Source: Nitrospinales bacterium
GTDB taxonomy: Bacteria > Nitrospinota > Nitrospinia > Nitrospinales > JAJDAT01
Direction: 5' to 3'
DNA length: 27,313 nucleotides
NCBI GenBank assembly: GCA_046757665.1
Contig: JBHHYO010000037.1
Span: 1 to 27,313 of the forward strand
Every line of letters starts with the position of its first letter. Positions within the stretch are counted from its first letter, which is position 1. Both the position numbers and the translations under genes were made by a program. The notes beneath the pieces were generated by a model, which saw only the letters and a list, made by a program, of their open reading frames with translations, made no database searches and was not told the DNA's origin. Shown here in pieces: positions 8,787 through 27,313 of the stretch.

Positions 8787-8788
8787 GT

Positions 8789-12675: not shown

Positions 12676-12701
12676 GGGCTTTCAGAGTGTTTTTCCGGCT
12701 C

Positions 12702-13607
12702 TCAGCCACGCCAGAGGTATTGCAGGACCGGGAGCTTGTCATAAGAGGCTATCGTATCGGCGATCCGCGCTGGTGAATAGCCTTCGATCAGCCAGCTTAA
12801 AAGACTGCGAAACTCCTTTTCCTGAATCAGCTTGGGACGTTTTTTCAGATCAAGGAGTTGCATCAGCAACTCGACGCTGTCTTCAAAACCTCCCAGTTGG
12901 TCCACAAGATTGAACTTCATGGCCTGCCTGCCGGTAAATATGCGCCCGTCGGCCAGTTTGTTGACTTCATCAAGGGGCATATTGCGGGCCTTGGAAACGG
13001 CTTCGGCAAACTGTTGATGCACGTCATCGAGAACCTGTTGCAGGATTTTGCGCTCCTCAGCCAGCATGGGGCGCAAGGGAGAACCGGCATCCTTGAATTT
13101 TCCGCTTTTGATCACTTGAGGTTTGATGCCGATTTTGTCCATCAATTTCTGGATGTTGGAAGAGGCCATGATTACCCCGATGCTACCGGTCAAGGTTCCG
13201 GGGTTGGCAACGATGCGGTCGGCGGAGCTGGCGATGTAATACCCGCCGGAAGCCGCCAGACTGCCCATGGAAGCGATGATCTTCTTTGTGTCCCGGGTTT
13301 TCAGCACTTCATTGTAAATTTCCTGCGAGGGCGCCACCGCGCCGCCGGGAGAATCGATCCGCAGAATAATCCCCTTGATCGAAGGGTCCTCCCGATACTT
13401 GACCAACTGGCGAACCACGTCCCGGGAATCCGTAATAATTCCGTGCACTTCCACAACGCCGACTTTTGGCCGCGCCGCAACCAGCTGGTCCGGCAGAAAG
13501 ACGGCCAGAATTCGCGAAAGACCCACCAGCGCCAGGACTCCCACAAAAAAGTAGAATAGCCGGACAAGAAAAGACTTTTTCTTTCGTGGTGCGTTTACCG
13601 CTTCCAT
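12702..13607 (-). CDS. sppA: Signal peptide peptidase SppA (36K type)
   Basis: RIDSPGG, AASGGYYIA, GSIGV, KSGKFKD, ADGRIFTG; N-terminal transmembrane helix. Confidence 0.95.
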   Translation of the reverse strand: MEAVNAPRKKKSFLVRLFYFFVGVLALVGLSRILAVFLPDQLVAARPKVGVVEVHGIITDSRDVVRQLVKYREDPSIKGIILRIDSPGGAVAPSQEIYNEVLKTRDTKKIIASMGSLAASGGYYIASSADRIVANPGTLTGSIGVIMASSNIQKLMDKIGIKPQVIKSGKFKDAGSPLRPMLAEERKILQQVLDDVHQQFAEAVSKARNMPLDEVNKLADGRIFTGRQAMKFNLVDQLGGFEDSVELLMQLLDLKKRPKLIQEKEFRSLLSWLIEGYSPARIADTIASYDKLPVLQYLWRG

Positions 13608-13623
13608 AATACAACCCGCCGGC

Positions 13624-15327
13624 TCATGTTTCGTCCTTGGCGCCGGTCTTGCCGTTTTCCATCAGAGCCTGTTCCTGCTCGATTGCCGAAACGTCCATGT
13701 CGGCCTCATAGGCCTTGATGCTCAGGCCGATCTTCTTGTTTGTCGTATCCACCTTGACCACCTTTGCCTTGACGACGTCACCCACCTTGACCACTTTTTC
13801 CGGGTGCGAGACTTTCTCGGTGCTCAATTGGGAGATATGAATCAAGCCTTCCAATCCATCGTCGAATTCGGCAAAAGCGCCGAACCCGGTGGTTTTGATA
13901 ATGGTTGCGGTCACCTCCGTTCCCACGGGCACACGCTCGGCGATGTCGTCCCAGGGGTTGGGTTGCAATTGTTTGATCCCCAGGGAAATGCGAAAGGCGT
14001 CCTTGTCGATGTGCAGGACAACGGCCTTGACTTGCTCCTTTTTCTTGATGACTTCCGACGGATGTTTGATCTTGCCCCAGGAAAGGTCGGAAATATGGAT
14101 CAACCCGTCCACTCCGTCCTCCAGTTCCACAAAGGCCCCGAAATCCGCCAGGTTTCTCACCGTACCGGTTACCTCGGAGCCGATGGGATACTTGTTTTCG
14201 ATGTCTTCCCAGGGATTCGGTTCAACCTGCTTCATTCCCAGGGAGATGCGCTTCTTTTCCTTGTCGAGAGTCAGGACGACGGCTTCCACCATATCGTGAA
14301 TGGAAACGATTTTGCTGGGATGCTTGGTTTGGCGGCTCCAGGACATTTCCGAAATATGGACGAGGCCCTCGATGCCTTTTTCAAGTTCGATGAAGGCGCC
14401 GTAATCCGTAATGCTCACCACCTTGCCGGTGATTTTGGAATTCACCGGATATTTATTCTCCAGGTCGATCCACGGGTCGGGGGTGATCTGCTTGAGTCCC
14501 AGGGAAACCCGCTCGCTTTCCTTGTCGAATTTGAGGACCATCACCTTTATTTTGTCGCCGATGGAGAACATTTCGGAAGGATGGTTCACGCGCCCCCAGG
14601 ACATGTCGGTAATGTGCAATAGCCCGTCGATGCCGCCCAGGTCGATAAACACGCCGTAGTCCGTGATGTTTTTGACAATGCCGTCCACCAGGTTGCCTTC
14701 CTTCATGTTTGCCAGGGTTTCATGGCGGGCCTGCTTGCGCTGTTCCTCAAGCAGAATCCTGCGCGAGCAGACGATGTTGCCTCGTTTCTTGTTCATCTTG
14801 ATGATTTTCATCTGGAACTTTTCGCCGATCAGTTTTTCCAGATTGCGAATGGGACGGAGGTCGATTTGCGATCCCGGCAAAAAAGCCTTGAGGCCGATGT
14901 CCACCGTCAATCCCCCCTTGGCCTTGGCCACCACGGTGCCCTCGATGGTTTCATCGTTTTCCGAGGCCTTGACCAGCAGGTCCCAAACCTTGATTTTGTC
15001 GGCCTTCTCCTTGGACAAAACCACGACGCCGTGTTCGTCCTCGATTCTTTCGAGAAACACCTCGATCTCGTCGCCTATCTTGAGTGTCTTCTCGCCGCTG
15101 GGGAACTCGTCGAGGCTGACGATGCCCTCCGATTTAAATCCTACGTCCAGGGTGACCGTTTCCTTGGAAACGTCGATTACCTTGCCGAAAATAAGTTCCC
15201 CGGCCTTGAATTTTTTTAGGCTACGGTCATAGAATTCCTCCATTTCTCGGAACTCGGCTTTTTCCTGTTCGGTCATCTCCTCCTGTTCGTCCATATCCAG
15301 GTCCAGGGTATTCGATTTGTCCTTCAT
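13624..15327 (-). CDS. rpsA: 30S ribosomal protein S1
   Basis: Six S1 repeats, AFLPGSQID, KNITDYGVFIDLGGIDGLLHITDMSW. Confidence 0.98.
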   Translation of the reverse strand: MKDKSNTLDLDMDEQEEMTEQEKAEFREMEEFYDRSLKKFKAGELIFGKVIDVSKETVTLDVGFKSEGIVSLDEFPSGEKTLKIGDEIEVFLERIEDEHGVVVLSKEKADKIKVWDLLVKASENDETIEGTVVAKAKGGLTVDIGLKAFLPGSQIDLRPIRNLEKLIGEKFQMKIIKMNKKRGNIVCSRRILLEEQRKQARHETLANMKEGNLVDGIVKNITDYGVFIDLGGIDGLLHITDMSWGRVNHPSEMFSIGDKIKVMVLKFDKESERVSLGLKQITPDPWIDLENKYPVNSKITGKVVSITDYGAFIELEKGIEGLVHISEMSWSRQTKHPSKIVSIHDMVEAVVLTLDKEKKRISLGMKQVEPNPWEDIENKYPIGSEVTGTVRNLADFGAFVELEDGVDGLIHISDLSWGKIKHPSEVIKKKEQVKAVVLHIDKDAFRISLGIKQLQPNPWDDIAERVPVGTEVTATIIKTTGFGAFAEFDDGLEGLIHISQLSTEKVSHPEKVVKVGDVVKAKVVKVDTTNKKIGLSIKAYEADMDVSAIEQEQALMENGKTGAKDET

Positions 15328-15354
15328 GGTGATTCAATCCTTTCGTAAAATTTT

Positions 15355-16020
15355 TCAGACATTGGCGGCGGGCCCGATGTGTTCCACTACCTTGTCCACG
15401 ACTTCATCAATGGTTAAATGGGTGGTATCCAGGTAAATAGCGTCCTTGGCCCGAATCAGCGGGGCGATTTTTCTGTGCGCGTCTTCATAATCGCGTTGCT
15501 TGATTTGCGCGACGATCTTTTCCAGGTTGACTTGCTGTTGCTTGGCCCTCAGTTCGTGGTAGCGGCGTTTCCCCCGCTCGACGGGGTCGGCGTCAAAATA
15601 GAACTTGATGTCGGCATGGGGGAACACCACGGTGCCGATATCCCGCCCCTCCATGACGATTTTCCCTTCGTGGCCCATGTGGCGTTGCAGGGCGGTCATG
15701 ATTTCGCGGACCTTGGGCTGGCTGGCGACGACGGCGGCGCCTTTGCCCACCACCTCGCTCTTGAGGATTTGCGTGACGTCGTTGCCGTTGACCATTACTT
15801 TTTGCCCATCCGGATGGGGAACAAATTCGATGTCCAGTTCCGCCGCCACCCGGGCAACCTGTTCCCGGTCATTCAGGTCCATGCCGTTGTTTTGCGCGGT
15901 CCAGGCGACGGCGCGGTACATGGCTCCGCTGTTGATGTAGCGAAACGCCAGTTTTTCGGCGATGGTTTTGGCGATGGTGCTCTTGCCGCTCCCGGCCGGT
16001 CCGTCAATCGCGATAATCAT
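15355..16020 (-). CDS. cmk: Cytidylate kinase
   Basis: IAIDGPAGSGKST, GAMYRA, MEGRDIGTVVFP. Confidence 0.97.
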   Translation of the reverse strand: MIIAIDGPAGSGKSTIAKTIAEKLAFRYINSGAMYRAVAWTAQNNGMDLNDREQVARVAAELDIEFVPHPDGQKVMVNGNDVTQILKSEVVGKGAAVVASQPKVREIMTALQRHMGHEGKIVMEGRDIGTVVFPHADIKFYFDADPVERGKRRYHELRAKQQQVNLEKIVAQIKQRDYEDAHRKIAPLIRAKDAIYLDTTHLTIDEVVDKVVEHIGPAANV

Positions 16021-16024
16021 TCAG

Positions 16025-16897
16025 TTATTTCCTGAACGCCGGTTCAAACGTTTCCCTGGCGTTCGTAAATAGTTTGACCAAATAGTCCTCTTCCTCCCTG
16101 CCGATTCCCGATTTGATTTCGTCCAGGGTGTCCTCGAACCGTTCGATAATGTCCAGCACCGCGTCCTTGTTGAAAATGCAGATGTCCTTCCACATAACCG
16201 GTTCGCTGACAGCCAGGCGTGACATGCTTTTCAAGCCGTTGCCGCCGTATGAGGCGATCACCTGGCCTTGCCGCGTTTTCAGGCCGGCAATGGTGTTTAC
16301 CAGCGCGAAAGCGACGATGTGAGGCAAATGGCTGACCGCTCCGTAAACGATGTCGTGCTCGCTCGCATCCATCGACAAAACCGTCGAGCCCAGCTTTTGC
16401 CACAACTCGGTGACGCGGCCCAGGGCGGCCCGGTCGGTGTTCGGCGTGGGCGTGACGACGCATTTCGCGTTTTCAAACAAGTCCGGGTCGGAAGCCGCGA
16501 ACCCGGATTTTTCACTGCCGGCGATGGGGTGCGTCCCGACAAAACAAACGCCCGCGGGAAGCGCTTTCTCCATTTCCTCGACCACGGGGGCCTTGACCGA
16601 GCCGACATCAATGAGAATGCAACCCTTGCGGAGAGCGGGAATCATGGCGCGGGCGCAACGCGCGATACTGCCCACGGGGGTGCAGATGACAATCAGGTCG
16701 GACCCCCTGGCGGCCGCGGGCAGGTCGGTGAACGCTTCATCAATGAGACCCTGTCTTTTGGCCGCTTCGATGTTCTCGCGGTTTCTGCCGCAACCGACGA
16801 TTTTGCCGGCCAGGCCGCGCCGGCGGCACGCCTGGGCCAGCGACCCGCCTAAAAGGCCCACGCCGACTATCGTTATCTGTTCAAACAAGGGTTTCAT
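16025..16897 (-). CDS. tyrA: Prephenate/arogenate dehydrogenase
   Basis: GVGLLGGS Rossmann motif, DVGSVK, HPIAGSEKSG, HD...VSHLPH; start at ATG 16897 just after the pheA stop. Confidence 0.93.
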   Translation of the reverse strand: MKPLFEQITIVGVGLLGGSLAQACRRRGLAGKIVGCGRNRENIEAAKRQGLIDEAFTDLPAAARGSDLIVICTPVGSIARCARAMIPALRKGCILIDVGSVKAPVVEEMEKALPAGVCFVGTHPIAGSEKSGFAASDPDLFENAKCVVTPTPNTDRAALGRVTELWQKLGSTVLSMDASEHDIVYGAVSHLPHIVAFALVNTIAGLKTRQGQVIASYGGNGLKSMSRLAVSEPVMWKDICIFNKDAVLDIIERFEDTLDEIKSGIGREEEDYLVKLFTNARETFEPAFRK

Positions 16898-16905
16898 GGT
16901 TCGGC

Positions 16906-17979
16906 TCAGACCTTTTGTGGATAAGAACCCAGAACGTTTAAAAACAGGCATCGCCGTTTCAACAGCTCGATCACCCGAGCGATGGCCTTGTCCTCGATAT
17001 GGCCTTCAAAATCGAGGTAAAACAGGTATTCCCAGGGCCGGTTCCGCAGGGGCCTGGATTCGATCCTGGATAAATTGATTTTGTTCCGGGCAAACAGTTG
17101 CAGTGTTTTCAGGAGCGCCCCGGCCTCGTCCTTGATGGAAAACATGATGGACGTTTTATTGGACTTCGCCCGTTTGGCGGGCGTTTTGCCGATGACGAGA
17201 AAGCGAGTGTAGTTTTCCGTGCGGTCCTGGATATTTGCGGCGTGGACGCTCAACCGGTAATGCTCGGCGGCCAGTTTCCCGGAAATCGCCGCGGCGTGCT
17301 TGTTCTTGACCGCCATCTCTGCGGCGGTGGCGGTGCTGGAGGTCTCCACTTTCTCGACCTCCGGCAGGTGGCGGTTCAACCAGTTCCGGCACTGCGCCAG
17401 GGGGTTGGGGTGGGAATAGACCACCTTGATCTCGCTGGGGTCTTGCACCCGCGACAATAAATAGAGCGAGATACCCAGCTTGATTTCATCGCAAATCAAA
17501 AGAGGCGAATCGACGAAGCAATCCAGCGTCAGGTTGACCACGCCCTCGCTGGAGTTTTCGATGGGGACGACGCCGTAGTCGGCGCCGCCGCGCTCCACTT
17601 CGTGGAAAATGGCGTCAATGGCCGGGTGCGGCAAAAACACCGTCCCATGACCGAATTGCTTGATGGCCGCCTGGTGGGTGAAGGTGGTTTCCGGGCCCAG
17701 ATAGGCGATCTTGAGAGGTTTCTCCAGCGCCAGTGTCGCCGAGAAAATCTCCCGAAAAACCGCCTCCACCGAGGTGTTCGGAAACGGGCCCCGGTTGGCT
17801 TCCTTGAGGCGGTCAATGATCTCCCGCTCCCGATGGGGAACGTGGAAATGGTTGTCGCCGCCCCGCTTGGATTTTTCCCTGCCGATTTTGATAGCCAGCT
17901 CGGCTCGGCGGTTGATCATCTTCAACAGCCGGTCGTCGATCCGGTCTATCTTGTCGCGTAAAATAGCAATTTCGCGCAA
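16906..17979 (-). CDS. pheA: Chorismate mutase / prephenate dehydratase (P-protein)
   Basis: LRDKIDRID chorismate mutase domain, AYLGP, VPIENSSEG, NYTRF, ACT domain IESRP; TTG start. Confidence 0.96.
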   Translation of the reverse strand: MREIAILRDKIDRIDDRLLKMINRRAELAIKIGREKSKRGGDNHFHVPHREREIIDRLKEANRGPFPNTSVEAVFREIFSATLALEKPLKIAYLGPETTFTHQAAIKQFGHGTVFLPHPAIDAIFHEVERGGADYGVVPIENSSEGVVNLTLDCFVDSPLLICDEIKLGISLYLLSRVQDPSEIKVVYSHPNPLAQCRNWLNRHLPEVEKVETSSTATAAEMAVKNKHAAAISGKLAAEHYRLSVHAANIQDRTENYTRFLVIGKTPAKRAKSNKTSIMFSIKDEAGALLKTLQLFARNKINLSRIESRPLRNRPWEYLFYLDFEGHIEDKAIARVIELLKRRCLFLNVLGSYPQKV

Positions 17980-18035
17980 ATACCGCTACCAACTTTCCTT
18001 GGGAATGATTCGAATTTTTGGGATTTCGAATTGGC

Positions 18036-18064
18036 TTGATCATTTCATATTTGGGCCATAAAAT
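18036..18064 (+). promoter_or_regulatory. Putative sigma-70 promoter for the MTH1187 gene
   Basis: TTGATC-17 bp-TAAAAT, followed by RBS AAGGAG before ATG 18094. Confidence 0.45.
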
Positions 18065-18093
18065 GCAAGCATATTTTTCAAGGAGATCCGAAT

Positions 18094-18402
18094 ATGGTGC
18101 TTCTCGAATTCAGCATGACTCCCCTGGACAAAGGCGAAAGCGTCAGCCCCTACGTCAGCCGGTCGCTGAAAATCATCGACGAAAGCGGACTGGACTACCG
18201 GCTCAACCCCATGGGCACGGTTCTGGAGGGGGAATGGGACGAGGTGATGGCGGTCGTCAAACAATGCTACGAGGCCATGAGCGCCGACTGCAACCGCATC
18301 ACCTGCTCCATCAAAATCGACGCCCGTAAAGGCCACAAGGGCCGACTGCAATCCAAGGTCGCCTCGGTCGAGGCCAAACTGGGCAAAACGCTGAAGAAAT
18401 AA
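18094..18402 (+). CDS. MTH1187/YkoF-like thiamine-binding family protein
   Basis: FSMTP...SVSPYV...SGLDYRLNPMGTVLEG...IKID.R...KVASVE; strong RBS. Confidence 0.9.
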   Translation: MVLLEFSMTPLDKGESVSPYVSRSLKIIDESGLDYRLNPMGTVLEGEWDEVMAVVKQCYEAMSADCNRITCSIKIDARKGHKGRLQSKVASVEAKLGKTLKK

Positions 18403-18505
18403 TCCGACCGCCGATCCGCGCCCCGGCAAGTGGGAAGGTTGATGGCAAAACCCCGTTGCCAAACCAATCCGAACAGCCGAAAACGGAACGGGAGGTTTCA
18501 TTACC

Positions 18506-18698
18506 ATGGAAAAAACTGTTTTTTTTCGCCCTGCTCGCCCCTTGCCTTTTCCTTGCCGCGCCTGGCTGTACGATTACCGGTTCACCGATTCCGCCGTCAG
18601 AGAGAAGAACGGCGCCTGGTGGCGACGCCAACGCCTCCAACCCTACACCCCGGTCTTCCACCTGCCCGATTCCCTGTAGCGCCTCTTATTCCGAATAA
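18506..18698 (+). pseudogene. Possible degraded lipoprotein gene
   Basis: GGAGG RBS (18491-18495) and ATG 18506 lie one base out of frame with KKLFFFALLAPCLFLAAPGC, a lipoprotein-like signal peptide. Confidence 0.3.
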
Positions 18699-18928
18699 AA
18701 ATGACTTCTTAATTCAGTGTCCGGGATGTAAGCCAACGCTTGCCGATAAATCGCGCGAAGCGTACCGGTGTCAATTTCCTTGTGATTGGGAAGAGTAAGA
18801 GTTTGTCTTTTGCCGTCTACAATCCTTGCCAACTTGACATGACTGCCTTTTTGTCCGGCAAGGGTAAAGCCGAAGTTTTTCAGGATAGAAATCAGTTGCG
18901 TTCCGGACAAACGCCTAAGTTTGGGCAT
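18686..18928 (-). CDS. hicA: HicA-family mRNA interferase toxin, intact
   Basis: MPKLRRLSG...LKNFGF...QKGSHVKL...LPNHKEIDTGTLRAI; start overlaps the hicB 3' end. Confidence 0.9.
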   Translation of the reverse strand: MPKLRRLSGTQLISILKNFGFTLAGQKGSHVKLARIVDGKRQTLTLPNHKEIDTGTLRAIYRQALAYIPDTELRSHFYSE

Positions 18929-19151
18929 GGACCGGTTCAAGCTCCATGCTGACAATGAGCGGCGCGTCAGGTGAAAGGCCGGATTCTTCCGGCGTTTCGT
19001 CCTCAAAATGGAGGGCCAACGCCTCTTTTATATTTTTAACGGTATCGTCTATCGACTTTCCCTGGGTAATGACCGGCAGACTGACGCACTCGGCCACATA
19101 GCCGCTTTCTGTGCCTGGATACAAGATAATTTGTATTACGTTGCGTTTCAT
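18915..19151 (-). CDS. hicB: Short HicB-family antitoxin, intact
   Basis: GYVAECVSLPVITQGKSIDDTVKNIKEALALHFEDE; 78 aa with no evident DNA-binding domain. Confidence 0.9.
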   Translation of the reverse strand: MKRNVIQIILYPGTESGYVAECVSLPVITQGKSIDDTVKNIKEALALHFEDETPEESGLSPDAPLIVSMELEPVHAQT

Positions 19152-19217
19152 TTAATTTCCCTGCCTCCGATTTTTAACCCAGCCCCTACGATCCAATTAA
19201 AATCCCATTTTTACCAT

Positions 19218-19239
19218 CAGTAAACAAACAGTAAACAAA
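19218..19239. repeat. Perfect 11-bp tandem direct repeat upstream of hicBA
   Basis: CAGTAAACAAA twice (19218-19228, 19229-19239). Confidence 0.6.
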
Positions 19240-19363
19240 AATCGGCACTTCCGCTTTTCAAGCGCTTCTCATGTTCCTAATTTTATTCCTTCTGTTCTGC
19301 CGCTCCTCAAAAACTTCTCGGCTATTTTCTGGTGAGTATCGAAGGTGATTAATGATGGCAATT

Positions 19364-19646
19364 CACTACTGTCCGGGGAAATTCTTGATCTCGTTGTTAT
19401 AGTGTTTTCAAAGAAATCAACTTCTTTATTTTTCAATAAGTTAGCTTTTTGCGATCCATGCTGTCCGGGGAAACCCTGATCTCAATTCCTGAAAAGCTTT
19501 TCTGGAATCATTTGAGAATCCCTTTTCATTGTGGAAAGGGCGTTTATAGCCGTTTAAAGGGTTCCTTTATGCTGTCCGGTTAAAAAAAGAGCCTAACTAA
19601 GCCTCATATTTTCAATGAAGCTTTTAATTTTCCCCGGACACTACTG
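19364..19646. mobile_element. Non-autonomous MITE-like element (283 bp), copy 1
   Basis: Terminal inverted repeats CACTACTGTCCGGGGAAA (left) and CAGTAGTGTCCGGGGAAA (right, reverse complement); flanking direct repeat ATGGCAATT at 19355-19363 and 19647-19655; internal CTGTCCGG copies at 19461 and 19572; AT-rich and non-coding; related copy at 27197. Confidence 0.85.
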
Positions 19647-19677
19647 ATGGCAATTATGAATTTCGGGGACACAAGAT

Positions 19678-19770
19678 TCAATTCTTTTCGATGTTCACCT
19701 CGGAATTCCGATGCTTTATATCGTCGGGCAGTGCCGTTTCAAAAAACAGCTCCAGTGCTTCTCGAATTTT
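19678..19770 (-). pseudogene. Possible C-terminal remnant of a third short hicB gene
   Basis: KIREALELFFETALPDDIKHRNSEVNIEKN* resembles the EAL.LFFETA...EI..R...EV C-terminus of short HicB proteins (recalled family pattern); no N-terminal half is visible. Confidence 0.4.
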
Positions 19771-19829
19771 ATCCAACTCAGACCGTATTATTCTCACGGC
19801 CTGATTGTAACATCCTCCGGCGCCCGGAT

Positions 19830-19877
19830 TGTGCGTTTTTTCAGCAGACGGGTTTTTGTGTGCACAAAAATGGTGCG
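19830..19877. promoter_or_regulatory. NtrC-like enhancer (one strong site, one weak site)
   Basis: TGCACAAAAATGGTGCG (19861-19877) versus consensus TGCACC-N5-GGTGCA; weak TGT-N11-GCA site at 19830-19846, 31 bp upstream. Confidence 0.7.
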
Positions 19878-19961
19878 GAATTCCCCGGCGCTCGCATTCC
19901 GGGATCGGTTTGATGCTCCGGATTCGCCCGTTTAAACGGGAGGTTCCGCGGTTTCGGGAAT

Positions 19962-19977
19962 TGGCACGGATATTGAA
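19962..19977 (+). promoter_or_regulatory. Sigma-54 (-24/-12) promoter of the nitrate-assimilation operon
   Basis: TGGCACG-GATA-TTGAA versus consensus TGGCACG-N4-TTGCW: perfect -24 element, C-to-A change at -12; about 85 bp downstream of the strong enhancer site. Confidence 0.65.
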
Positions 19978-20040
19978 TGTACCTGTTTCTTTCAATTCTA
20001 TCTTATGAAATTCTAAAGTAAAAAGTTCCCGAGGCACTGC

Positions 20041-21639
20041 GTGGTGAACAAAATAGAAAAATTGAAGGGCGAAAAGGACGGCCTCGATATTGCCGGGGAT
20101 ATCGCCCGGTTCGCCAGGGAAGGTTGGGAGTCCATCTGCGAGGAGGACGTGCAACGATTGAAGTGGCACGGATTATTTTTGCGTAAACCGACGCCCGGCT
20201 ACTTCATGTTGCGCGTGCGGATGGCCAACGGACAGACCTTTTCGCATCAGGTGAAAATGCTGGCCCGGATCGCCCGGGAATTCGGCAACGGGTTGATTGA
20301 TATCACCACCCGGCAACAGGTGCAGGTCCGGCATTTGCGGATCGACGATGTGCCGCAAGTGTTTGAGCTGATGGAATCGGTAGGTTTGACTTCCCTGCAA
20401 ACCGGTCTGGACAATGTTAGAAATGTGATGGGATGTCCGGTGGCGGGACTGCATCCGCGGGAGGCGATCGACGCTTCTTTTCTGGTGAAGGCGTTGACCC
20501 AGCACATTCTGGAAAACCGGGAGTTCACCAATCTCCCCAGGAAATTCAACGTCGCCATCACGGGGTGCCCGGACAATTGCCTGCACACGGAGACCCAGGA
20601 CCTGGCATTGATCCCTGCCGGCAGGCAAGACACGGACGAGGCACGGGTCGGATTCAACGTCATGGCCGGAGGGAAATTGGGCTCCGGAGGCTATCGCATC
20701 GCCTCGCCTCTTGATATATTTGTATTACCGGAGGAAGTGGTTGAAGTGTGCTCTGCCGTGATTTTGTTGTACCGGGATCACGGGAGCCGGGAGCTTCGGA
20801 CGCAGAACCGTCTGGCCTTTCTTTTGGACGAATGGGGTGTCGACCGGTTTCGTTCGGAGTTGGCGCGGCGCCTGAAACGCCCCCTGGCGCGGGCCGGGCA
20901 AGACCTGCGCAACAACGAAAAAAAAGACCACTCCGGAATTTACCGGCAAAAGCAGGGGTTGATGAACTACGTTGGTTTGAAAGTGCGGGTGGGAAGAATC
21001 CGCGCCGAGGACTTTGGCGAGCTGGGCGTGTTGTCGGAAAAATACGGAACCGGGGAGTTGCGGATTTCGCCCGCGCAGACCCTGATTATCCCCAATGTGT
21101 CGGATAAAAAACTGGGTGATTTGCTGGAGGAGCCGTTACTGGTCAGCGAGTTGTCCTATGCGCCGTCGCGCGTGGTGCAAAACCTGGTCAGTTGCGTGGG
21201 GTCGGACTACTGCTCCCTCGCCGCCATAGAAACCAAAAGCCGCGCGCTGGAGGTGGCGGGGAAGCTGGAGGAAAAATTGAAAGACGTCGCGCCCATCTCC
21301 ATGCACTGGTCCGGATGCCCCGCCGGGTGCGGCAACCATTTGGTGGCGGACATCGGCTTGCTGGGTAAGCGCATCAAAGTGGCCGGGGAGGTGGTGGACG
21401 CCGTGGATGTTTATGTCGGCGGCCGCGCCGGGCCGCATCCGAAACCCGCCACCAAGCTGTTGCAAAACGTTCCCTGCGACCGGTTGCCCCAGGTTCTGGA
21501 AGGAATCATCCCGTACCACACCCGGGAAAAAATGCACCCCATCAAGGGAGCGAAGACACGGAAAAAAGACATGAAACAAAAACCGGCCGCGCCGGCCACC
21601 CCGGTTGTCAAGAAGACGCCCGCGGCAACGGTATGTTAG
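20041..21639 (+). CDS. nirA: Ferredoxin-nitrite reductase (siroheme, [4Fe-4S])
   Basis: NKIEKLK N-terminus, RLKWHG, FMLRVR, DITTRQ, DNVRN, NLPRKFNVAI; ligands CVGSDYC and HWSGCPAGC; GAGG RBS and GTG start; adjacent to a nitrate transporter. Confidence 0.92.
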   Translation: MVNKIEKLKGEKDGLDIAGDIARFAREGWESICEEDVQRLKWHGLFLRKPTPGYFMLRVRMANGQTFSHQVKMLARIAREFGNGLIDITTRQQVQVRHLRIDDVPQVFELMESVGLTSLQTGLDNVRNVMGCPVAGLHPREAIDASFLVKALTQHILENREFTNLPRKFNVAITGCPDNCLHTETQDLALIPAGRQDTDEARVGFNVMAGGKLGSGGYRIASPLDIFVLPEEVVEVCSAVILLYRDHGSRELRTQNRLAFLLDEWGVDRFRSELARRLKRPLARAGQDLRNNEKKDHSGIYRQKQGLMNYVGLKVRVGRIRAEDFGELGVLSEKYGTGELRISPAQTLIIPNVSDKKLGDLLEEPLLVSELSYAPSRVVQNLVSCVGSDYCSLAAIETKSRALEVAGKLEEKLKDVAPISMHWSGCPAGCGNHLVADIGLLGKRIKVAGEVVDAVDVYVGGRAGPHPKPATKLLQNVPCDRLPQVLEGIIPYHTREKMHPIKGAKTRKKDMKQKPAAPATPVVKKTPAATVC

Positions 21640-21652
21640 GAAAGAGGAACGT

Positions 21653-22861
21653 ATGATCAGAGGATTTTGCAAGCAGGGACACAAGCCGACATTGTTCAGC
21701 GCGTTTTTGTATTTTATGTCGAGCTGTATGATCTGGGTGGTTCTGGGATCGCTGGCGGTGCACATCGCCCGGGACCTGGAATTGCATCCGGCGCAAACGG
21801 GGCTGATGGTTGCCGTTCCGGTTTTGTTCGGCGCCTTGTTGCGCATTCCCGCCGGGTTTCTGGTTGACCGCCTGGGGTCGCGGAGGACGGGGCAGATCGG
21901 CCAGGCTCTGGTAATTCTGGCCTTGTTTTTCGCCTGGTTCCTGGGTCTGCGCAGTTTGGAGGGGCTTTACCTGATGGGGTTTTTCCTCGGAGTGGCGGGC
22001 GCCAGTTTCGCCGTCGCCCTGCCCCTGGCGGGCCAGTGGTATCCGCCGCAATACCAGGGGCTGGCGTTGGGAATCGCCGGCGCCGGAAATGTCGGAACGG
22101 TTTTGGCCGCACTGCTTGCGCCCCGCCTGGCGGAAGCTTTCGGCTGGCAGGCGGTGTTTGGCCTGGCCATTATCCCGGCGGCGTTCACCCTGCTGGTGTT
22201 TAGTCTGATGGCAAAGGACGCGCCGGGGAAAGAAGCGTCCCGTCAGACTCCGCATTACTTTTATATTCTCAAGGAAACGGACACGTGGTGGTTCTCCCTG
22301 TTTTACATGGTGACGTTCGGCGGGTTTGTCGGCCTGGCTTCCTCGCTGGTGATTTATTTTAACGACCAGTATGGCCTGGATCCCGTGACAGCCGGGACTT
22401 TCACGTCCGTTTGCGTGTTTGTCGGCAGTATGGTCAGGCCGTTGGGCGGCGCGCTTGCCGACCGGATCGGCGGCATCAAAACCCTGCTGATCCTGTACGT
22501 TGTGATGGCCCTGAGCCTGTTTGCCGTCGGTTTGGAGGCGGATTCCCCCTCCCTGGCGCTGGTGGTGCTTTCGATTGCCATGCTGGCCCTGGGCATGGGC
22601 AACGGCGCGGTTTTCCAACTCGTCCCCCTGCGGTTCGGAAAAGAAATCGGCACCATCACCGGCATCGTGGGGACCGCCGGCGGGATAGGCGGCTTTTGCC
22701 TGGCTTCCCTGCTGGGCTACTCCAGAGAATGGACGGGCAGTTACCAGCTGGGTTTCATGACCTTCGCCGGCCTGGCCGTTGTTTGCCTGCTCGTCATCCT
22801 GGCGGTGCAAACCCGGTGGCGGACCAGCTGGCGGGCGGCGTCCGTCATGGTCAAGATTTAA
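21653..22861 (+). CDS. narK: Nitrate/nitrite porter (MFS NNP family, NarK/NasA-type)
   Basis: GHKPTLFSAFLYF, nitrate signatures GVAGASFAV...GAGNVG and GMGNGAVFQLVP, conserved Arg in LLRIP and VRPLGG; RBS AAGAGGA before ATG 21653. Confidence 0.92.
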   Translation: MIRGFCKQGHKPTLFSAFLYFMSSCMIWVVLGSLAVHIARDLELHPAQTGLMVAVPVLFGALLRIPAGFLVDRLGSRRTGQIGQALVILALFFAWFLGLRSLEGLYLMGFFLGVAGASFAVALPLAGQWYPPQYQGLALGIAGAGNVGTVLAALLAPRLAEAFGWQAVFGLAIIPAAFTLLVFSLMAKDAPGKEASRQTPHYFYILKETDTWWFSLFYMVTFGGFVGLASSLVIYFNDQYGLDPVTAGTFTSVCVFVGSMVRPLGGALADRIGGIKTLLILYVVMALSLFAVGLEADSPSLALVVLSIAMLALGMGNGAVFQLVPLRFGKEIGTITGIVGTAGGIGGFCLASLLGYSREWTGSYQLGFMTFAGLAVVCLLVILAVQTRWRTSWRAASVMVKI

Positions 22862-22935
22862 TCCGTAGTTTTTTTATTCACAGACAATTTTTCAACCCTT
22901 GAATCGCAAGATTCTTCTTCCATACATTACAATTT

Positions 22936-24582
22936 ATGACCGATACGATGACGTTAACGTGCGCCGTTCCCACGGACAGCGTGCCCGAGGCCTTGCCGGT
23001 ACGCATTCCCCAATTGCCTCTGGAGTCCGGGGAGAATTACCGCTTCCATTTCGACATGACCAAGTGCATCGGTTGCCATTGTTGCGAGGTGGCGTGTTCC
23101 GAACAAAACAACAATCCGCCCGATGTCCAATGGCGGCGCGTCGGCGAAGTTGAAGGCGGCGCCTACCCTCACACCTTCCGGGCTTATGTGTCCATGGGAT
23201 GCAACCATTGCCTGGAACCGGCCTGCCTGACCGGCTGTCCGGTGGACGCCTACCGCAAGGAAGGGACGGGAATTGTCCTGTTGCAGGAGGATCAGTGCAT
23301 CGGTTGTCAATATTGCACGTGGAATTGCCCGTATGGCGTGCCCAAGTACAATGAGGACCGGAAGATCGTCACCAAGTGCGACATGTGCCGTTCCCGCCTG
23401 TCCGAGGGGCAGGAACCGGCCTGCGTGGGGTCGTGTCCGACCGGAGCCATCACCATCGAGTCGGTTCGCCCGGAAGGTTGGAAACGCAATCCGGGCGCGG
23501 GCGATGCGCCGGGCATTCCGCGGGTGGAAGGCACTCTGTCCACCACCCGGTTTACGCTTCCGGATCACTTGCCCGACCCGACGGTCACCACCGGTTATTA
23601 TCAGGTCAAGCCGGAGAAGGCGCATCCCTCGCTGATCATCTTGACGCTTTTGACGCAAATGTCCATCGGTGGTTTCGTCACCTTCTGGCTTGCGGACTGG
23701 TTTTCCACGGGGCGGGCGCTTTCCGCCGCGGCGCATGACGCCGTGGCCCTGGGGGCGGTGTTTTCGATTCTGGTGGGGTGGTTGGCCTTGGGGGCCTCGG
23801 TGTTTCATCTCGGCAGGCCCCTTTACGCCTTCCGCGCCCTGAAGATGTGGCGGCGGAGCTGGCTGAGCCGGGAGGTGTTGCTGTTCACCCTGTTCGCCAT
23901 GGCGGCGATTGTTTATTCCCTGCTGTGGGGCATGGAGTTGATGCCCGAATGGTTTGCCTGGGCCGGTTTTGCGGGTGGGGCGTATCGTCAGGCCTGGGGA
24001 GGCCTGGTGGCGGGGGTGGGTGTCGCCGGACTGGTTGCCAGCGCTTATATTTACATGGTGCCGGCGCGGCCGGCGTGGAACACGCCGCGCACGCCCGTTT
24101 CGTTTCTGACCACGGCGGCGGTTTTGGGACCGCTCTTTGCCCTGGCGGCTTACACGGTGTCCTTGTGGCATATCCCGCCGAACGATTGGAGCGCTGTTCT
24201 CGCCGCCGTCAACCCGGCGCTCCGCCTTATTTTGTTGTTCATCGGCGCGGCGGCGTTCTTTCAACTTTTAAACCAGGTGCAGATGTTGTTCTATCTCGCC
24301 GGTGAGCAAAACCCGGAACTCCATGCCACGACGCGGCTGTTGACCGTGAATTTCAAGGGCCACTTCCTGGCGCGCCTGGGCCTCCTGGTGGCGGGAGCGA
24401 TTTTGATGCCCTGGGTAGGATATGAAATGGCCATGAATCCCGCCACGGGGTGGGGAGGTTTCATGGCCGTGGTTAGCCTGGCCTTCTCGCTGACTTTGTC
24501 GGGGGAGATACTGGGCCGTTACCTCTTTTTCGTCACCGTCGTTCCCAAGAACATGCCCGGAAACTTTTTCCGGACGGAGTAG
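22936..24582 (+). CDS. Fused DmsB-like 4x[4Fe-4S] domain and DmsC/YnfH-like membrane anchor
   Basis: CIGCHCCEVAC, CNHCLEPACLTGCP, CIGCQYCTWNCP, KCDMC...PACVGSCP; then H.SLIILTLLTQ, ASVFHLGRP, SWLSRE and EILGRYLFF with about 8 hydrophobic helices. Confidence 0.9.
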   Translation: MTDTMTLTCAVPTDSVPEALPVRIPQLPLESGENYRFHFDMTKCIGCHCCEVACSEQNNNPPDVQWRRVGEVEGGAYPHTFRAYVSMGCNHCLEPACLTGCPVDAYRKEGTGIVLLQEDQCIGCQYCTWNCPYGVPKYNEDRKIVTKCDMCRSRLSEGQEPACVGSCPTGAITIESVRPEGWKRNPGAGDAPGIPRVEGTLSTTRFTLPDHLPDPTVTTGYYQVKPEKAHPSLIILTLLTQMSIGGFVTFWLADWFSTGRALSAAAHDAVALGAVFSILVGWLALGASVFHLGRPLYAFRALKMWRRSWLSREVLLFTLFAMAAIVYSLLWGMELMPEWFAWAGFAGGAYRQAWGGLVAGVGVAGLVASAYIYMVPARPAWNTPRTPVSFLTTAAVLGPLFALAAYTVSLWHIPPNDWSAVLAAVNPALRLILLFIGAAAFFQLLNQVQMLFYLAGEQNPELHATTRLLTVNFKGHFLARLGLLVAGAILMPWVGYEMAMNPATGWGGFMAVVSLAFSLTLSGEILGRYLFFVTVVPKNMPGNFFRTE

Positions 24583-24614
24583 CCAAATGGTTTTCAAATT
24601 TTTTTCGGGGCCTC

Positions 24615-26807
24615 ATGACAAAGTCTTCTACATTATTTAAAACCTTGCAGGGAATTCTCGGCTGGGACACCGGCGCGGAGCGATACCGTTTCGGAAGCGA
24701 TCCACAATTCGGCCTCATGGCGGAGGCAAAGATTCCGGACCACTGGGTGTCCACGACCTGCGGCTATTGTTCGGTGGGTTGCGGCATCAAGCTCGGCGTT
24801 CGCGACGGCAAGGCGGTCAGCGTTCGGGGAGACCCCGACCACTCCGTGAACCGCGGAATGCTGTGTCCCAAGGGACTGACCGCCCATTACGCGATCCATG
24901 CGCCGGACCGGGCGCGGCATCCCCTTCTGCGCCGGGAAAACCAGTTGACGCGGGTGAGTTGGGACCGGGCGCTTTCCGTCATGGCGGAGCGTTTCCGGAA
25001 AATCCAGAAAGAACACGGGCCGGAATCGGTTGCGGTGGTCGGCACCGGACAGTTGGTGACCGAGGAGTTCTATACGCTGGGCAAACTGGCGCAACTGGGG
25101 CTGGGAACCTCGAATTATGACGGCAACACCACGCTGTGCATGGCCAGCGCGGTCGCCGGTTACAAGCGGTCGTTCGGCAGTGACGGGCCGCCGGGATGTT
25201 ACGCCGACCTGGAACGCGCCGATTGCGTCTTTCTCATCGGCGCCAATATCGCCGACAACCATCCCATCCTGTACACCCATCTGGAGCGCAACCCGGACAA
25301 GACGGTGCTGGTGGCCGATCCGCGGATCAGCAAGACCGCCATGAAAGCCGATCTCTATCTGCCGCTGAAACCGCGCACGGACCTGGCGCTTCTCTATGGG
25401 ATGATGAAGGTACTGATTGACGCGGACCTGATCGATTCCCGGTTCGTCGCCGAGCACACCACCGGGTTCGAGGAGTTGCGGGCGTTTCTGGCGGATTACA
25501 CGCCGGCCCGGGTGGCGGCGATCACCGGACTGCGCGAGGCCATGATCCATCAGGCGGCGTTTGCCTACGGGCGCGCCCGTGCCGCGTTTATCGGCTGGAG
25601 CATGGGGGTGAACCAGAGCACGCAAGGCACCGCCACGGTGAACGCCATTAATACGCTGGCCCTGATTACGGGTAATATCGGCATCGAGGGCGGCGCTCCC
25701 TTCTCCATTACCGGGCAGTGCAATGCCATGGGGTCGCGGGAAACCTCCTTCACCTCCAGCCTGCCCGGTTACCGGGAGTTCGACAATCCGGCGGACCGGA
25801 AGGAACTGGCCGCGCTTTGGGGGATCGAGGAAACCCGCTTGCCGAAAAAAAGAGGACGGGCGTACCCCGACATTATCAACGATATTATTCTGGAGCGAAT
25901 CCACGGCCTGTGGATCATTGGCACCAATCCCATGGCGTCGTTTCCGAACTTGCAGTTTATCGGCGACGCGCTGGACCGCCTGGATTTTCTGGTCGTGCAG
26001 GACGGGTACCATCCCACTCCCACCAGCGCCCGGTGCGACCTTTTTCTGCCGGCGGCGATCTGGGGGGAAAAGGAGGGAACGTATACCAACTCCGAGCGGC
26101 GCGTTTCCAAAGTCAACCGGGCGGTTGCGCCTCCCGGCGAGGCAAAACCGGATTTCGATATTTTTCTCGAACTGGCCCGGAAACTGGGCTGTGACCGGGA
26201 ATTGTTCCCCGGCTGGAAAAGCCCGCGGGACGCCTTTGAAGAATGGAAACGGGTTTCACGGGGCCGGCTGTGCGATTATTCCGGCCTGGATTATGAACGC
26301 ATCGAACGCCTGGGCGGCATCCAATGGCCCTGTCCGGAAGAGGGGCCGCGGGAAGACCCGGCCCGGCTCTACGCGAAAAAACGATTCCCCTCTGCCGACG
26401 GCAAGGCCCGCCTGTGGTGCGTTCCCTGGGAACCGTTCCCCGAAAGCGGTAACCGGGAGTTTCCCTTTATCCTCAATACCGGGCGGACCGTGGAGCACTG
26501 GCACACCCGCACCAAAACCGGGCAAATCCCTCTCTTGAACAATCTGGCGCCGGAGGCCTGGCTGGAATTGAATCCGCAGGATGCCGGAAAATTAAAGGTC
26601 AAGCAGAACCAGTATGTCTCCGTCGTATCCCAGCGCGGCCGAATCGATCGAATCCGCGTCCGCGTCACGTCTATTGTTCGTCCGGGAGAAGTGTTTGTTC
26701 CCTTTCATTACGCGGAATGCTCGGCGAATCACCTGACGTTTAATATTTTCGATCCGATTTCGCGGCAACCCAACTACAAGCAATGCGCCGTGATGATTGA
26801 GGTTTAA
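24615..26807 (+). CDS. Molybdopterin oxidoreductase catalytic subunit, assimilatory nitrate reductase type (NasA/NarB-like)
   Basis: CGYCSVGC...LCPKG [4Fe-4S] motif, Mo-ligand Cys in TTLCMASAVAGY, SITGQCNAMG, GTYTNSERR, LNTGRTVEHWHT, DPISRQPNYKQCAV; no twin-arginine signal and no C-terminal BFD-like [2Fe-2S] domain. Confidence 0.88.
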   Translation: MTKSSTLFKTLQGILGWDTGAERYRFGSDPQFGLMAEAKIPDHWVSTTCGYCSVGCGIKLGVRDGKAVSVRGDPDHSVNRGMLCPKGLTAHYAIHAPDRARHPLLRRENQLTRVSWDRALSVMAERFRKIQKEHGPESVAVVGTGQLVTEEFYTLGKLAQLGLGTSNYDGNTTLCMASAVAGYKRSFGSDGPPGCYADLERADCVFLIGANIADNHPILYTHLERNPDKTVLVADPRISKTAMKADLYLPLKPRTDLALLYGMMKVLIDADLIDSRFVAEHTTGFEELRAFLADYTPARVAAITGLREAMIHQAAFAYGRARAAFIGWSMGVNQSTQGTATVNAINTLALITGNIGIEGGAPFSITGQCNAMGSRETSFTSSLPGYREFDNPADRKELAALWGIEETRLPKKRGRAYPDIINDIILERIHGLWIIGTNPMASFPNLQFIGDALDRLDFLVVQDGYHPTPTSARCDLFLPAAIWGEKEGTYTNSERRVSKVNRAVAPPGEAKPDFDIFLELARKLGCDRELFPGWKSPRDAFEEWKRVSRGRLCDYSGLDYERIERLGGIQWPCPEEGPREDPARLYAKKRFPSADGKARLWCVPWEPFPESGNREFPFILNTGRTVEHWHTRTKTGQIPLLNNLAPEAWLELNPQDAGKLKVKQNQYVSVVSQRGRIDRIRVRVTSIVRPGEVFVPFHYAECSANHLTFNIFDPISRQPNYKQCAVMIEV

Positions 26808-26854
26808 ACTATCGACGAGGACGGAAACCGGGATTGTTTTTTAGGCGGGAGGGA

Positions 26855-27145
26855 TCATTCTTCCCTGAAAAATCCGATAAAAATCAAGGTTGCGGTAATG
26901 ACGCCGGAAAAGACATAGATAAAAAAACCGGTTGTGGCGTAGCCTAATATATCTATGAAAAATCCGCGGTTGAAGAAAAATCCCCAATAAAAAACAAAAG
27001 TGTAGGAAATCAAAAGTCCCATCTTATGTTTTGAAAGAAAAAAACAAATAGAGATCATGAAGGCAAACAGAAGCATTTGTCCTAACGGAACGGAAAACTG
27101 CTTGTCGGACAAAAAGTTGATCATGCTGTTAACAAAGTCCATCAA
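26855..27145 (-). CDS. Small hydrophobic membrane protein of unknown function
   Basis: 96 aa, about 3 hydrophobic Phe-rich segments, RBS GGGAGG upstream; low GC. Confidence 0.7.
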   Translation of the reverse strand: MMDFVNSMINFLSDKQFSVPLGQMLLFAFMISICFFLSKHKMGLLISYTFVFYWGFFFNRGFFIDILGYATTGFFIYVFSGVITATLIFIGFFREE

Positions 27146-27196
27146 ATTCCTCCCTGGAGTGGTTTGGTTTCACATAATATGAATTTTATGCTTTAT

Positions 27197-27313
27197 CAGT
27201 AGTGTCCGGGGAAAATTAAAAATTCCTTTGAAAACATGAGGCTTAATTGGGCTCTTTTTTTTACCGGACAGCATGAATCGAAAAAAGATAACTCCTTAAA
27301 AAACAATAGATTT
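27197..27313 (-). mobile_element. MITE-like element copy 2, inverted relative to copy 1 and truncated by the window end
   Basis: Reverse complement of 27195-27274 matches 19569-19648 at 72/80 positions without gaps; 27272-27306 matches the reverse complement of 19426-19460 at 28/35. Confidence 0.8.

Follow-up and report, generated by a model that had tools for sequence, protein, structure and literature searches.

Bacterial nitrate reduction is usually divided among three systems, of which the assimilatory one is soluble and takes its electrons from NAD(P)H or ferredoxin/flavodoxin. A contig from a Nitrospinales genome (GenBank assembly GCA_046757665.1, contig JBHHYO010000037.1; 27,313 nt, G000:C37:1-27313), which was analyzed over its entire length and is referred to below as the window, raises the question of whether nitrate can also be assimilated at the expense of the membrane quinone pool. 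On this contig, a gene that fuses a DmsB-like iron-sulfur domain to a DmsC-like membrane anchor (hereafter, the fusion) stands directly before a gene for a molybdoenzyme of the Nap/Nas type (hereafter, NasA), and both follow nirA and narK, which encode a nitrite reductase and a nitrate/nitrite porter. Our reading, to which we assign a probability of about 0.6, is that the two proteins form a membrane-bound, cytoplasm-facing (mena)quinol:nitrate oxidoreductase that serves assimilation and has the overall build of the sulfite-oxidizing complex SoeABC, but with a Nas catalytic subunit. The computed support comes from the gene structure, the domains and cofactor ligands, the lack of export signals, the loop charges, the conservation of the quinol site, the predicted interface, and the strict co-occurrence of the two genes. 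From these lines of evidence we infer that quinol is the donor and nitrate the substrate, which way the electrons flow, and what role the enzyme plays in the cell.

The fusion joins a four-cluster iron-sulfur domain to an eight-helix anchor

Both genes lie at the positions and on the strand given in the initial annotation of the window (Table 1), and its description of the first one, a single polypeptide in which a four-cluster DmsB-like domain is followed by a DmsC-like membrane domain, was borne out. The best-scoring model for the N-terminal domain was TIGR02951 (DmsB; 157.8 bits, residues 35-174), Fer4_11 matched residues 83-174, and the narH model reached only 53 bits against a cut-off of 524. 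The domain contains 16 cysteines in four groups (residues 44, 47, 50, 54; 89, 92, 97, 101; 121, 124, 127, 131; and 148, 151, 163, 167). All 16 are conserved without exception in two alignments, one of 25 relatives and one of 60, and their number suffices for four [4Fe-4S] clusters. Foldseek matched this domain to FdnH, PsrB, and ArrB. The remainder of the protein is covered by PF04976 (DmsC; residues 232-532); hhalign aligned it to the DmsC of the Escherichia coli K-12 record with a probability of 98.3 at 25% identity, and its Foldseek matches were ActC and PsrC. An AlphaFold2 model of the fusion built from a 60-row alignment (mean pLDDT 79.4, pTM 0.81) places eight long helices after the iron-sulfur domain, over residues 231-533, with pLDDT mostly above 85 in the anchor, and the HLGRP and WLSRE motifs are kept across the conserved eight-helix domain. 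With a four-cluster protein carrying 16 cysteines and a heme-free eight-helix anchor whose predicted quinone site lies beside the B part, the fusion has the composition that defines complex iron-sulfur molybdoenzymes (CISM).

NasA carries a predicted nitrate-reductase active site and falls into a separate clade

NasA had been annotated as a cysteine-ligated Nap/Nas-type enzyme lacking a twin-arginine translocation (Tat) signal, and its residues agree with this description. It has the Pfam domains Molybdop_Fe4S4, Molybdopterin, and Molydop_binding, and the four predicted ligands of its [4Fe-4S] cluster FS0 (C49, C52, C56, C84), K86, and the predicted molybdenum ligand C175 are invariant in 60 sequences. 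Among solved structures, the best match is the NapA of Desulfovibrio desulfuricans, a monomeric enzyme (494 bits). In alignments with PDB sequences, Cys175-Met176 and 'SITGQCNAMG' (with Thr366) of NasA parallel the Cys-Met and 'SLTGQPNA' of this NapA, whereas at these places Cys/Sec-His and 'LRGQNN' (with Arg) stand in all three formate dehydrogenases that were aligned. Judged by these residues, NasA appears to bear the active-site pattern of a nitrate reductase and not that of a formate dehydrogenase.

Profile scores alone would have suggested otherwise. The top NCBIfam models for NasA were Fdh-alpha, NasC, NasA_Halo, and NapA, all below cut-off, with Nap, Nas, and Fdh scores of 415-587 bits. 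The highest score came from the broad Fdh-alpha model (587 versus a cut-off of 666), and every nitrate-reductase equivalog cut-off was missed (NasC NF047855, 541.5 versus 1100; NasA_Halo NF041323, 522 versus 1000). The dmsA_ynfE model reached 166 bits (cut-off 778), and the narG model was absent among the 25 NCBIfam matches listed for NasA. These scores are the case for supposing that NasA acts on another substrate (formate, chlorate, selenate, or an S- or N-oxide) and that its association with nitrogen genes is incidental or regulatory. We regard this as very unlikely: NasA lacks both the histidine that follows the molybdenum ligand in formate dehydrogenases and their active-site arginine, and it matches NapA at both positions; it also groups with nitrate reductases rather than with FdhF, and the nitrate-assimilation genes around it are a constant feature. 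A formate dehydrogenase identity, suggested by the top score, was itself ruled out by the active-site residues together with the tree described next.

To place NasA, we computed a quick maximum-likelihood tree of 34 rows, comprising the window NasA, 24 of the 72 NasA proteins that come from complete fusion-nasA pairs at related loci (paired NasA; the 24 were picked to span the phyla, and the other 48 are not in the tree), eight named reference proteins, taken from E. coli K-12 or from plasmid records, and one paralog from the same genome. The window NasA and all 24 paired NasA formed one clade (SH-aLRT 98), which lay beside but apart from NapA, from the NasC, NasN, and Bacteroidota types, and from a type found in Deinococcus and Halomonas; several reference branches were long. 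The Nap/Nas groups, the window NasA among them, were separated from FdhF with a support of 99, which is the outcome that the initial annotation had anticipated from such a phylogeny. A feature of the paired-NasA clade is an N-terminal extension of 40-50 residues. The first CxxCxxxC motif starts at residues 39-53 in the 72 paired NasA, as compared with residues 7-14 in the NasC, NasN-type, and Bacteroidota references, and within the extension G16 and G33 are invariant and D18, Y24, Y26, D29, and K39 nearly so.

Plasmid records contained 940 relatives of NasA, all of them below 60% identity to the window protein (best, 40.7%). Two plasmid-borne enzymes, annotated as nitrate reductases in Deinococcus aetherius and Halomonas sp. 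KO116 (L093 5899-8250 and L095 4923-7751), form the clade of their own mentioned above. They have a different N-terminal extension, of 42 residues, and represent another little-described Nas type; the downstream neighbor is an HPP-family gene in Halomonas sp. KO116 and is annotated only as hypothetical in Deinococcus aetherius.

NasA and the iron-sulfur domain are predicted to form a complex

We then predicted the complex of full-length NasA with residues 1-225 of the fusion, giving each partner as a 60-row alignment, in three runs and with three controls. The ipSAE was 0.92 in all three runs, versus 0.00 for the best control; the runs agreed on at least 81% of the contacts, and the pLDDT of the partners was at least 82. 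When the prediction tool was calibrated, 58 of 80 solved complexes attained the ipSAE mark, as did 2 of 110 mismatched pairs. The interaction that the initial annotation had called for was in this way recovered, although related interfaces have already been solved and the result is for that reason one of likeness and not of proof. The tightest contacts run from NasA residues 83-89, around the FS0 ligand C84, to fusion residues 43-59, around the first cysteine group, and correspond in the model to the standard A-B (FS0-to-FS1) interface of the enzyme superfamily. NasA residues 18-39, within the N-terminal extension, also contact the iron-sulfur domain. Because a tight complex with a membrane protein is predicted, the model argues against NasA being a soluble enzyme.

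The anchor retains the residues of a quinol site that is predicted to face the cytoplasm

The quinone site of DmsC is described, in the portions of PMC8076601 at hand, as Ser62, His65, Ser82, and Glu87, the histidine and the glutamate being listed for SoeC as well, and replacement of His65 is stated there to abolish quinol oxidation by DmsC. In our alignment, these four residues correspond to S288, H291, S308, and E313 of the fusion, and the distance between histidine and glutamate is 22 residues in both proteins. H291, S308, and E313 are invariant across 60 sequences. In the AlphaFold2 model, H291 lies at the end of transmembrane helix (TM) 2 and E313 at the start of TM3, so that both lie toward the iron-sulfur domain, in keeping with the canonical geometry.

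To determine which side of the membrane this is, we examined export signals and loop charges. A Tat-like signal, defined as an RR motif followed by a hydrophobic h-region, was found in neither window protein, in none of the 72 paired NasA, and in none of the fusions from 80 related loci. The same test flagged both positive controls, the NapA of E. coli and a Selenomonas NapA, and four of the 72 paired NasA carry 'RRLG' with no hydrophobic region after it. The loops of the fusion contain 12 lysines and arginines on the iron-sulfur side versus one on the far side, and the means over 60 sequences are 13.75 and 0.97; when these segments are applied to E. coli DmsC, the counts are 2 versus 2, with several charges at helix ends counted as membrane. 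In the model, the iron-sulfur domain is N-terminal to TM1 and no helix precedes it. Given the positive-inside rule and the lack of any export signal, the iron-sulfur side is assigned to the cytoplasm, so that the iron-sulfur domain and NasA are predicted to sit there, the reverse of DmsABC. The topology put forward in the initial annotation stood up on both counts, the eight modeled helices and the charge bias.

The opposite arrangement, a periplasm-facing complex like DmsABC that is exported by an unrecognized route, finds its precedent in the solved DmsC/PsrC-type complexes, all of which are periplasm-facing according to the available text of PMC8076601. We consider it scarcely credible here, in view of the position of the iron-sulfur domain ahead of TM1 and of the absence of a Tat or Sec signal from all 72 NasA and 80 fusions. 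A periplasmic orientation was accordingly tried and rejected on the loop charges and the missing Tat signal.

The two genes occur together across several phyla

If the two proteins work as one complex, their genes should travel together. Relatives of the fusion were plentiful (5386 matches in 8000 candidates scored), and among the matches listed 120 of 120 carried PF04976 and 119 also a Fer4-type domain. When species-representative genomes were scanned, 599 stretches matched, of which 561 were confirmed to contain a relative; the best 80 loci were kept for the counts that follow, and their record titles name Acidobacteriota, Omnitrophota, Planctomycetota, Nitrospira, Turneriella, and others. 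A NasA homolog (56-66% identity) lies directly downstream on the same strand in 78 of the 80, and the two remaining loci terminate within ~270 bases of the fusion. By a start-codon heuristic, the genes overlap by 4 bases in 65 of the 72 complete pairs. This pairing is far beyond chance, and the expectation that similar gene pairs exist in other phyla was met amply. Of the named relatives, the one closest to the fusion is encoded by a Nitrospinales metagenome-assembled genome.

The same picture emerged within a single order. We sampled 151 genomes of the order to which one acidobacterial carrier belongs. A NasA of the paired clade is encoded in 38 of them (37 at full length with 58-64% identity, and one fragment), and with the two lists matched by eye the fusion is present in all 38 and in none of the other 113. 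Wherever coordinates were compared, it adjoins NasA. A further 28 genomes of this order have only distant NasA relatives (31-42% identity) and do not have the fusion. One acidobacterial genome (G236:C1:1687263-1690018) has fragments only, matching residues 20-168 of the fusion query and 128-411 of NasA; both genes seem to have decayed together.

Some matches depart from the fused form. The plasmid collection did not yield the fusion; its matches were the separate DmsB and DmsC proteins of enterobacteria and vibrios, none of which covered 80% of the query. Among proteins of at most 300 amino acids (aa), 598 match the anchor part. Most of these come from contigs only 1-3 kb long and are probably truncated pieces, and five (P0132, P0141, P0154, P0178, and P0190) are on contigs of at least 28 kb and may be true separate anchors.

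Clustering of the flanking open reading frames (ORFs) at the 80 loci returned NirB at 54, NirD at 48, a major facilitator superfamily (MFS) porter at 54, GAF-ANTAR regulators at 12, and NrtA-like proteins at 9. The usual layout is fusion-nasA-nirB-nirD-porter, and the order nirA-narK-fusion-nasA seen in the window is a minority form. Together with nirA and narK in the window operon, these neighbors identify the gene context of the pair as assimilatory. The synteny predicted in the initial annotation held in part: the neighbors do belong to nitrate assimilation, but the usual nitrite reductase is NirB and not NirA, NirA-like genes (32-45% identity) being found at only 3 of the 80 loci. Its suggestion that feeding nitrate reduction with quinol spares low-potential electrons for NirA does not hold in general, for the NirB next to the pair is of the NADH type. 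At 16 of the 80 loci, an outer-membrane porin of the Alginate_exp type is also encoded near the pair (e.g., L005:11900-13306); it may be an anion (nitrate/nitrite) porin of the assimilation cluster.

The frequent presence of NirB and NirD raises the alternative that the fusion is a tether and electron hub fed by a soluble donor, NirB/NirD at most loci and ferredoxin in the host of the window, and that the anchor does not oxidize quinol. In Paracoccus, NirB/NirD can hand electrons from NADH to NasC, and all characterized assimilatory nitrate reductases of which we are aware use soluble donors; the host genome, for its part, does encode ferredoxin-like proteins. A passive anchor is hard to reconcile with the retention of the quinone-site residues, since the histidine, the glutamate, and the two serines of DmsC are all kept in the fusion, with H291, S308, and E313 invariant in sequences from several phyla. 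The conservation reaches over the whole eight-helix domain, including both of its motifs, and the host genome has no NirB above cut-off, so we judge a soluble donor to be improbable.

In the phylum of the host, by comparison, the module is rare. Of 120 genomes searched, the host alone carries the fusion; five carry a Nas-like enzyme, and the other four of these are at most 41% identical. On these grounds, the module looks horizontally acquired in the host.

The host is probably a nitrite oxidizer

The genome to which the window belongs (2.97 Mb, 160 contigs, 97.6% complete) encodes a protein of the futalosine pathway (MqnA family), which suggests that the host quinone is menaquinone, and it gave no match at cut-off to the proteobacterial UbiA. 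It also encodes two NuoG-like proteins. A type-II enzyme of the DMSO reductase family with a Tat signal (1153 aa), followed by an ORF of 425 aa (G000:C22:10463-13924 and downstream; L087 2464-7300), looks like the periplasmic nitrite oxidoreductase NxrAB; because of this resemblance, the host is probably a nitrite oxidizer. Hydrogen as another energy source was considered and set aside, as a NiFe hydrogenase large subunit was not found in the 97.6%-complete genome. Public DNA runs that contain the stretch are labeled hydrothermal vent metagenome, which may be its source. None of the runs listed for 20041-26807 is an RNA run, a result that bears on expression in neither direction.

A nitrite oxidizer of this kind poses a paradox. 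Nitrite is already a nitrogen source for it by way of NirA, and the reduction of nitrate with electrons derived from nitrite would amount to a loop. It could therefore be argued that the same complex is mainly dissimilatory or redox-balancing, that is, a non-electrogenic quinol:nitrate reductase for survival at low oxygen or for the disposal of excess reductant, with NarK exporting nitrite and with assimilation secondary. NarK-family porters do include nitrate/nitrite antiporters, quinol-fed nitrate reductases are otherwise respiratory to our knowledge, and 19 of the 80 related loci have no NirB or NirA-like gene in the fetched flanks, many of which are cut by contig ends. Nevertheless, the pair shares its operon with nirA in the window, and elsewhere its partner of assimilatory type, NirB, is often accompanied by ANTAR regulators and NrtA-like proteins. 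Moreover, if quinol is bound at the cytoplasmic face, as the model and the loop charges suggest, no proton-motive force would be gained. A mainly dissimilatory role is thus distinctly unlikely in our estimation, and we retain assimilation as the preferred one.

Layout of the operon and of the window

The operon consists of nirA, narK, the fusion gene, and nasA, all on the + strand, with intergenic gaps of 13, 74, and 32 bases (Table 1). As initially annotated, the pair shares it with nirA and a NarK-type porter, and no NADH-diaphorase, NirBD, or ferredoxin gene is present within the visible operon, which is bounded on its 3' side by the end of the contig ~500 bases past nasA. In our scan, a NirB/NasB-type or ferredoxin gene was not found there, the short upstream ORFs being only partly covered, and at the level of the 97.6%-complete genome no NirB match exceeded its cut-off. 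Nap-family matches were absent from the scanned ORFs of the window, some short ORFs lying outside the scan. The best NCBIfam match of nirA was NF007125 (ferredoxin-nitrite reductase; 545.6 bits, under the cut-off of 594), and narK scored 295.7 bits against TIGR00886 (NarK family), slightly below the cut-off of 311.7. The start of narK is more likely the ATG at 21653 than the listed TTG at 21605, which overlaps nirA.

The AT-rich stretch upstream of nirA may contain the regulatory region of the operon. The GC fraction is 0.48 in the block 18001-20000, and one weak sigma-70-like match was found at 19174-19203. Consensus scans of 18300-27313 gave background numbers only (6 promoter-like matches versus 3.8 expected; 15 terminator-like matches versus 14.7), and an Rfam scan of the whole window returned zero family matches. 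Between the housekeeping genes and this stretch, there are a thiamine-binding-protein gene and, within 18686-19151 on the - strand, a HicA-type toxin ORF (106 aa; PF07927, E 5e-17). A 78-aa ORF that overlaps it just upstream is in the position of the HicB antitoxin and has no Pfam match. Other ORFs without a Pfam match are at 4505-4867, 5704-6726, 7701-8927, 8924-9571, and 10249-12138; some may be spurious opposite-strand frames, and the last one opposes a PMT_2 glycosyltransferase gene at 10642-12177.

Table 1. Features of the 27,313-nt window
Feature	Position	Strand	Remarks
DmsB-DmsC fusion (P0001)	22936-24582	+	548 aa
Fusion, N-terminal DmsB-like domain	22936-23610	+	Residues 1-225; four predicted [4Fe-4S] clusters; no signal peptide
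Fusion, C-terminal DmsC-type membrane anchor	23626-24534	+	Residues 231-533; eight transmembrane helices; PF04976
Predicted quinol site	23797-23874	+	S288, H291, S308, E313; end of TM2 to start of TM3, on the iron-sulfur (predicted cytoplasmic) side
NasA catalytic subunit (P0002)	24615-26807	+	730 aa; Tat-less Nap/Nas-type molybdoenzyme
NasA, N-terminal extension	24615-24758	+	Residues 1-48, ahead of the first cluster cysteine; non-Tat; predicted docking arm
NasA, catalytic core	24759-26807	+	FS0 C49/C52/C56/C84; K86; Mo ligand C175 (bases 25137-25139); molybdenum-bis(molybdopterin guanine dinucleotide) (Mo-bisMGD) domains
nirA, ferredoxin-type siroheme nitrite reductase	20041-21639	+	532 aa; NIR_SIR and NIR_SIR_ferr domains
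narK, NarK-family MFS nitrate/nitrite porter	21653-22861	+	MFS_1; TIGR00886
AT-rich non-coding stretch upstream of nirA	19152-20040	+	~890 bases; short ORFs only; presumed promoter/regulatory region
Housekeeping genes	1-18500		PAS histidine kinase, fumarase, sigma factor, rpsA, cmk, tyrA, pheA

Proposed mechanism and its implications

We propose the following route. NarK would import nitrate, and the DmsC-type anchor would bind quinol at its cytoplasmic face, where S288, H291, S308, and E313 lie. The DmsB-like domain would conduct the two electrons of quinol along its four [4Fe-4S] clusters to FS0 of NasA, and from there they would travel by way of K86 and the pterins to the molybdenum at C175, where nitrate would be reduced to nitrite; NirA would then convert nitrite to ammonium with ferredoxin. 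The protons of quinol would be released, and those for nitrate reduction used, on the cytoplasmic side in both cases, and because release and consumption are on the same side the nitrate step is probably non-electrogenic. The core of this route, a quinol-fed nitrate reductase facing the cytoplasm, was put forward in the initial annotation, and the orientation, the wire of clusters, the quinol site, the interface, the active-site signature, the co-occurrence, and the neighbors all agree with it.

Several observations weigh against the proposed enzyme. A nitrite oxidizer has little obvious need for nitrate reduction, and soluble 4Fe-4S ferredoxin-like genes are present elsewhere in the host genome. 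NasA stays under every nitrate-reductase equivalog cut-off and has its top score with a formate dehydrogenase model, and the tree was a quick search without characterized NarB, Klebsiella NasA, or Bacillus subtilis NasC. The complex score may mirror the likeness to solved A-B pairs (PsrAB, FdnGH, ArrAB). At most related loci, the adjoining NirB/NirD make a second donor route possible, and within its phylum the fusion is confined to the host.

A variant that we consider unlikely would alter the energetics: the inverted NrfD/DmsC-type anchor could move the protons of quinol, or extra protons, across the membrane and so conserve part of the ~0.5 V drop between menaquinol and nitrate, making the pair a further widespread class of nitrate reductase. 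If this were true, the first step of nitrate assimilation would be energy-yielding, which would matter most for nitrite oxidizers, short as they are of cheap low-potential reductant.

With or without proton transfer, a quinol-fed NasA would mean that many bacteria draw the electrons for assimilatory nitrate reduction from their respiratory quinones. What nitrate assimilation is assumed to cost in electrons and energy would change, the interpretation of nasA as a marker gene in metagenomes would be affected, and the anchor would be the second inverted one of the DmsC type after SoeABC. New here is the occurrence of the module in a probable nitrite oxidizer of the Nitrospinota, the sole carrier among the phylum genomes searched, and it raises the question of when such an organism would need nitrate as a nitrogen source.

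Comparison with known systems

The soluble assimilatory enzymes (NasA, NasC, NarB, NasN) resemble the window NasA in being cytoplasmic Mo-bisMGD proteins with an N-terminal [4Fe-4S] cluster and a cysteine ligand, encoded next to nitrite reductase and transporter genes. Their donors are ferredoxin/flavodoxin, or NAD(P)H by way of NasB/NirB, NasG, or a fused flavoprotein, and examples with a fused flavoprotein or linked to nirBD were seen in the present analysis. As a predicted cytoplasmic enzyme of the Nap/Nas clade with a cysteine ligand and an assimilation gene cluster, the window NasA would be classed with Nas/NarB, although it stays below the curated Nas equivalog cut-offs; unlike the soluble enzymes, it belongs to a clade of its own, has the N-terminal extension, and always has the membrane fusion as a neighbor.

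The periplasmic Nap system provides the closest solved catalytic subunit, the D. desulfuricans NapA, and in NapGH a precedent for passing electrons from quinol through an iron-sulfur protein to a Nap-type subunit. Nap is exported by Tat, however, and NapH and NapG are not DmsC/DmsB-type fusions. NarGHI of Mycobacterium tuberculosis is a quinol-fed, cytoplasm-facing nitrate reductase that supplies nitrite for assimilation, but NarG is an Asp-ligand protein of ~1200 aa and NarI a diheme cytochrome b, in contrast to the 730-aa, cysteine-ligated subunit and the DmsC-type anchor described here. E. coli DmsABC is alike in the parts that form the fusion: the DmsB model is the best one for the N-terminal domain, the anchor belongs to the DmsC Pfam family, and the four quinone-site residues are kept. 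It differs in that DmsA has a Tat signal and faces the periplasm, whereas the window proteins have no signal and a cytoplasmic charge bias, in that DmsB and DmsC are separate proteins, and in that DmsA belongs to another catalytic clade than NasA.

Our literature search, with subscription journals and supplementary files outside its reach, found no published description of a DmsB/DmsC-type partner of an assimilatory nitrate reductase; within the same bounds, exact-phrase queries for a membrane-bound or quinol-dependent assimilatory nitrate reductase returned nothing. The retrieved portions of PMC10359470 and PMC12153308 name nas genes only in general terms.

SoeABC, from Allochromatium vinosum and Aquifex aeolicus, comes closest in overall build. 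The likeness is drawn from published descriptions and not from a sequence alignment, and membership of NasA in the SoeA type is unlikely. As far as the accessible text of PMC8076601 goes, SoeABC is the only NrfD-type complex for which a cytoplasmic orientation on an inverted anchor is assumed; its modules are a molybdenum-bis(pyranopterin guanine dinucleotide) subunit containing FS0, a protein with four clusters, and a DmsC-like anchor of eight helices, and it shares the cytoplasm-facing peripheral subunits and the His65/Glu87 quinone site. The differences are that Soe oxidizes sulfite and reduces quinone, whereas the flow proposed here is from quinol to nitrate, and that in the window the B and C parts are fused and the catalytic subunit is of the Nap/Nas type with a nitrate-reductase signature. 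By its domains, the pair would be placed in the CISM superfamily (A + B + NrfD/DmsC-type anchor) outside the Dms, Soe, Nap, and Nar families. The claim of the initial annotation that the pair fits no known architecture can accordingly be kept for nitrate reductases, where it matches none of Nar, Nap, and Nas, but not for the layout as such, which has its precedent in the cytoplasm-facing SoeABC as portrayed in that part of PMC8076601.

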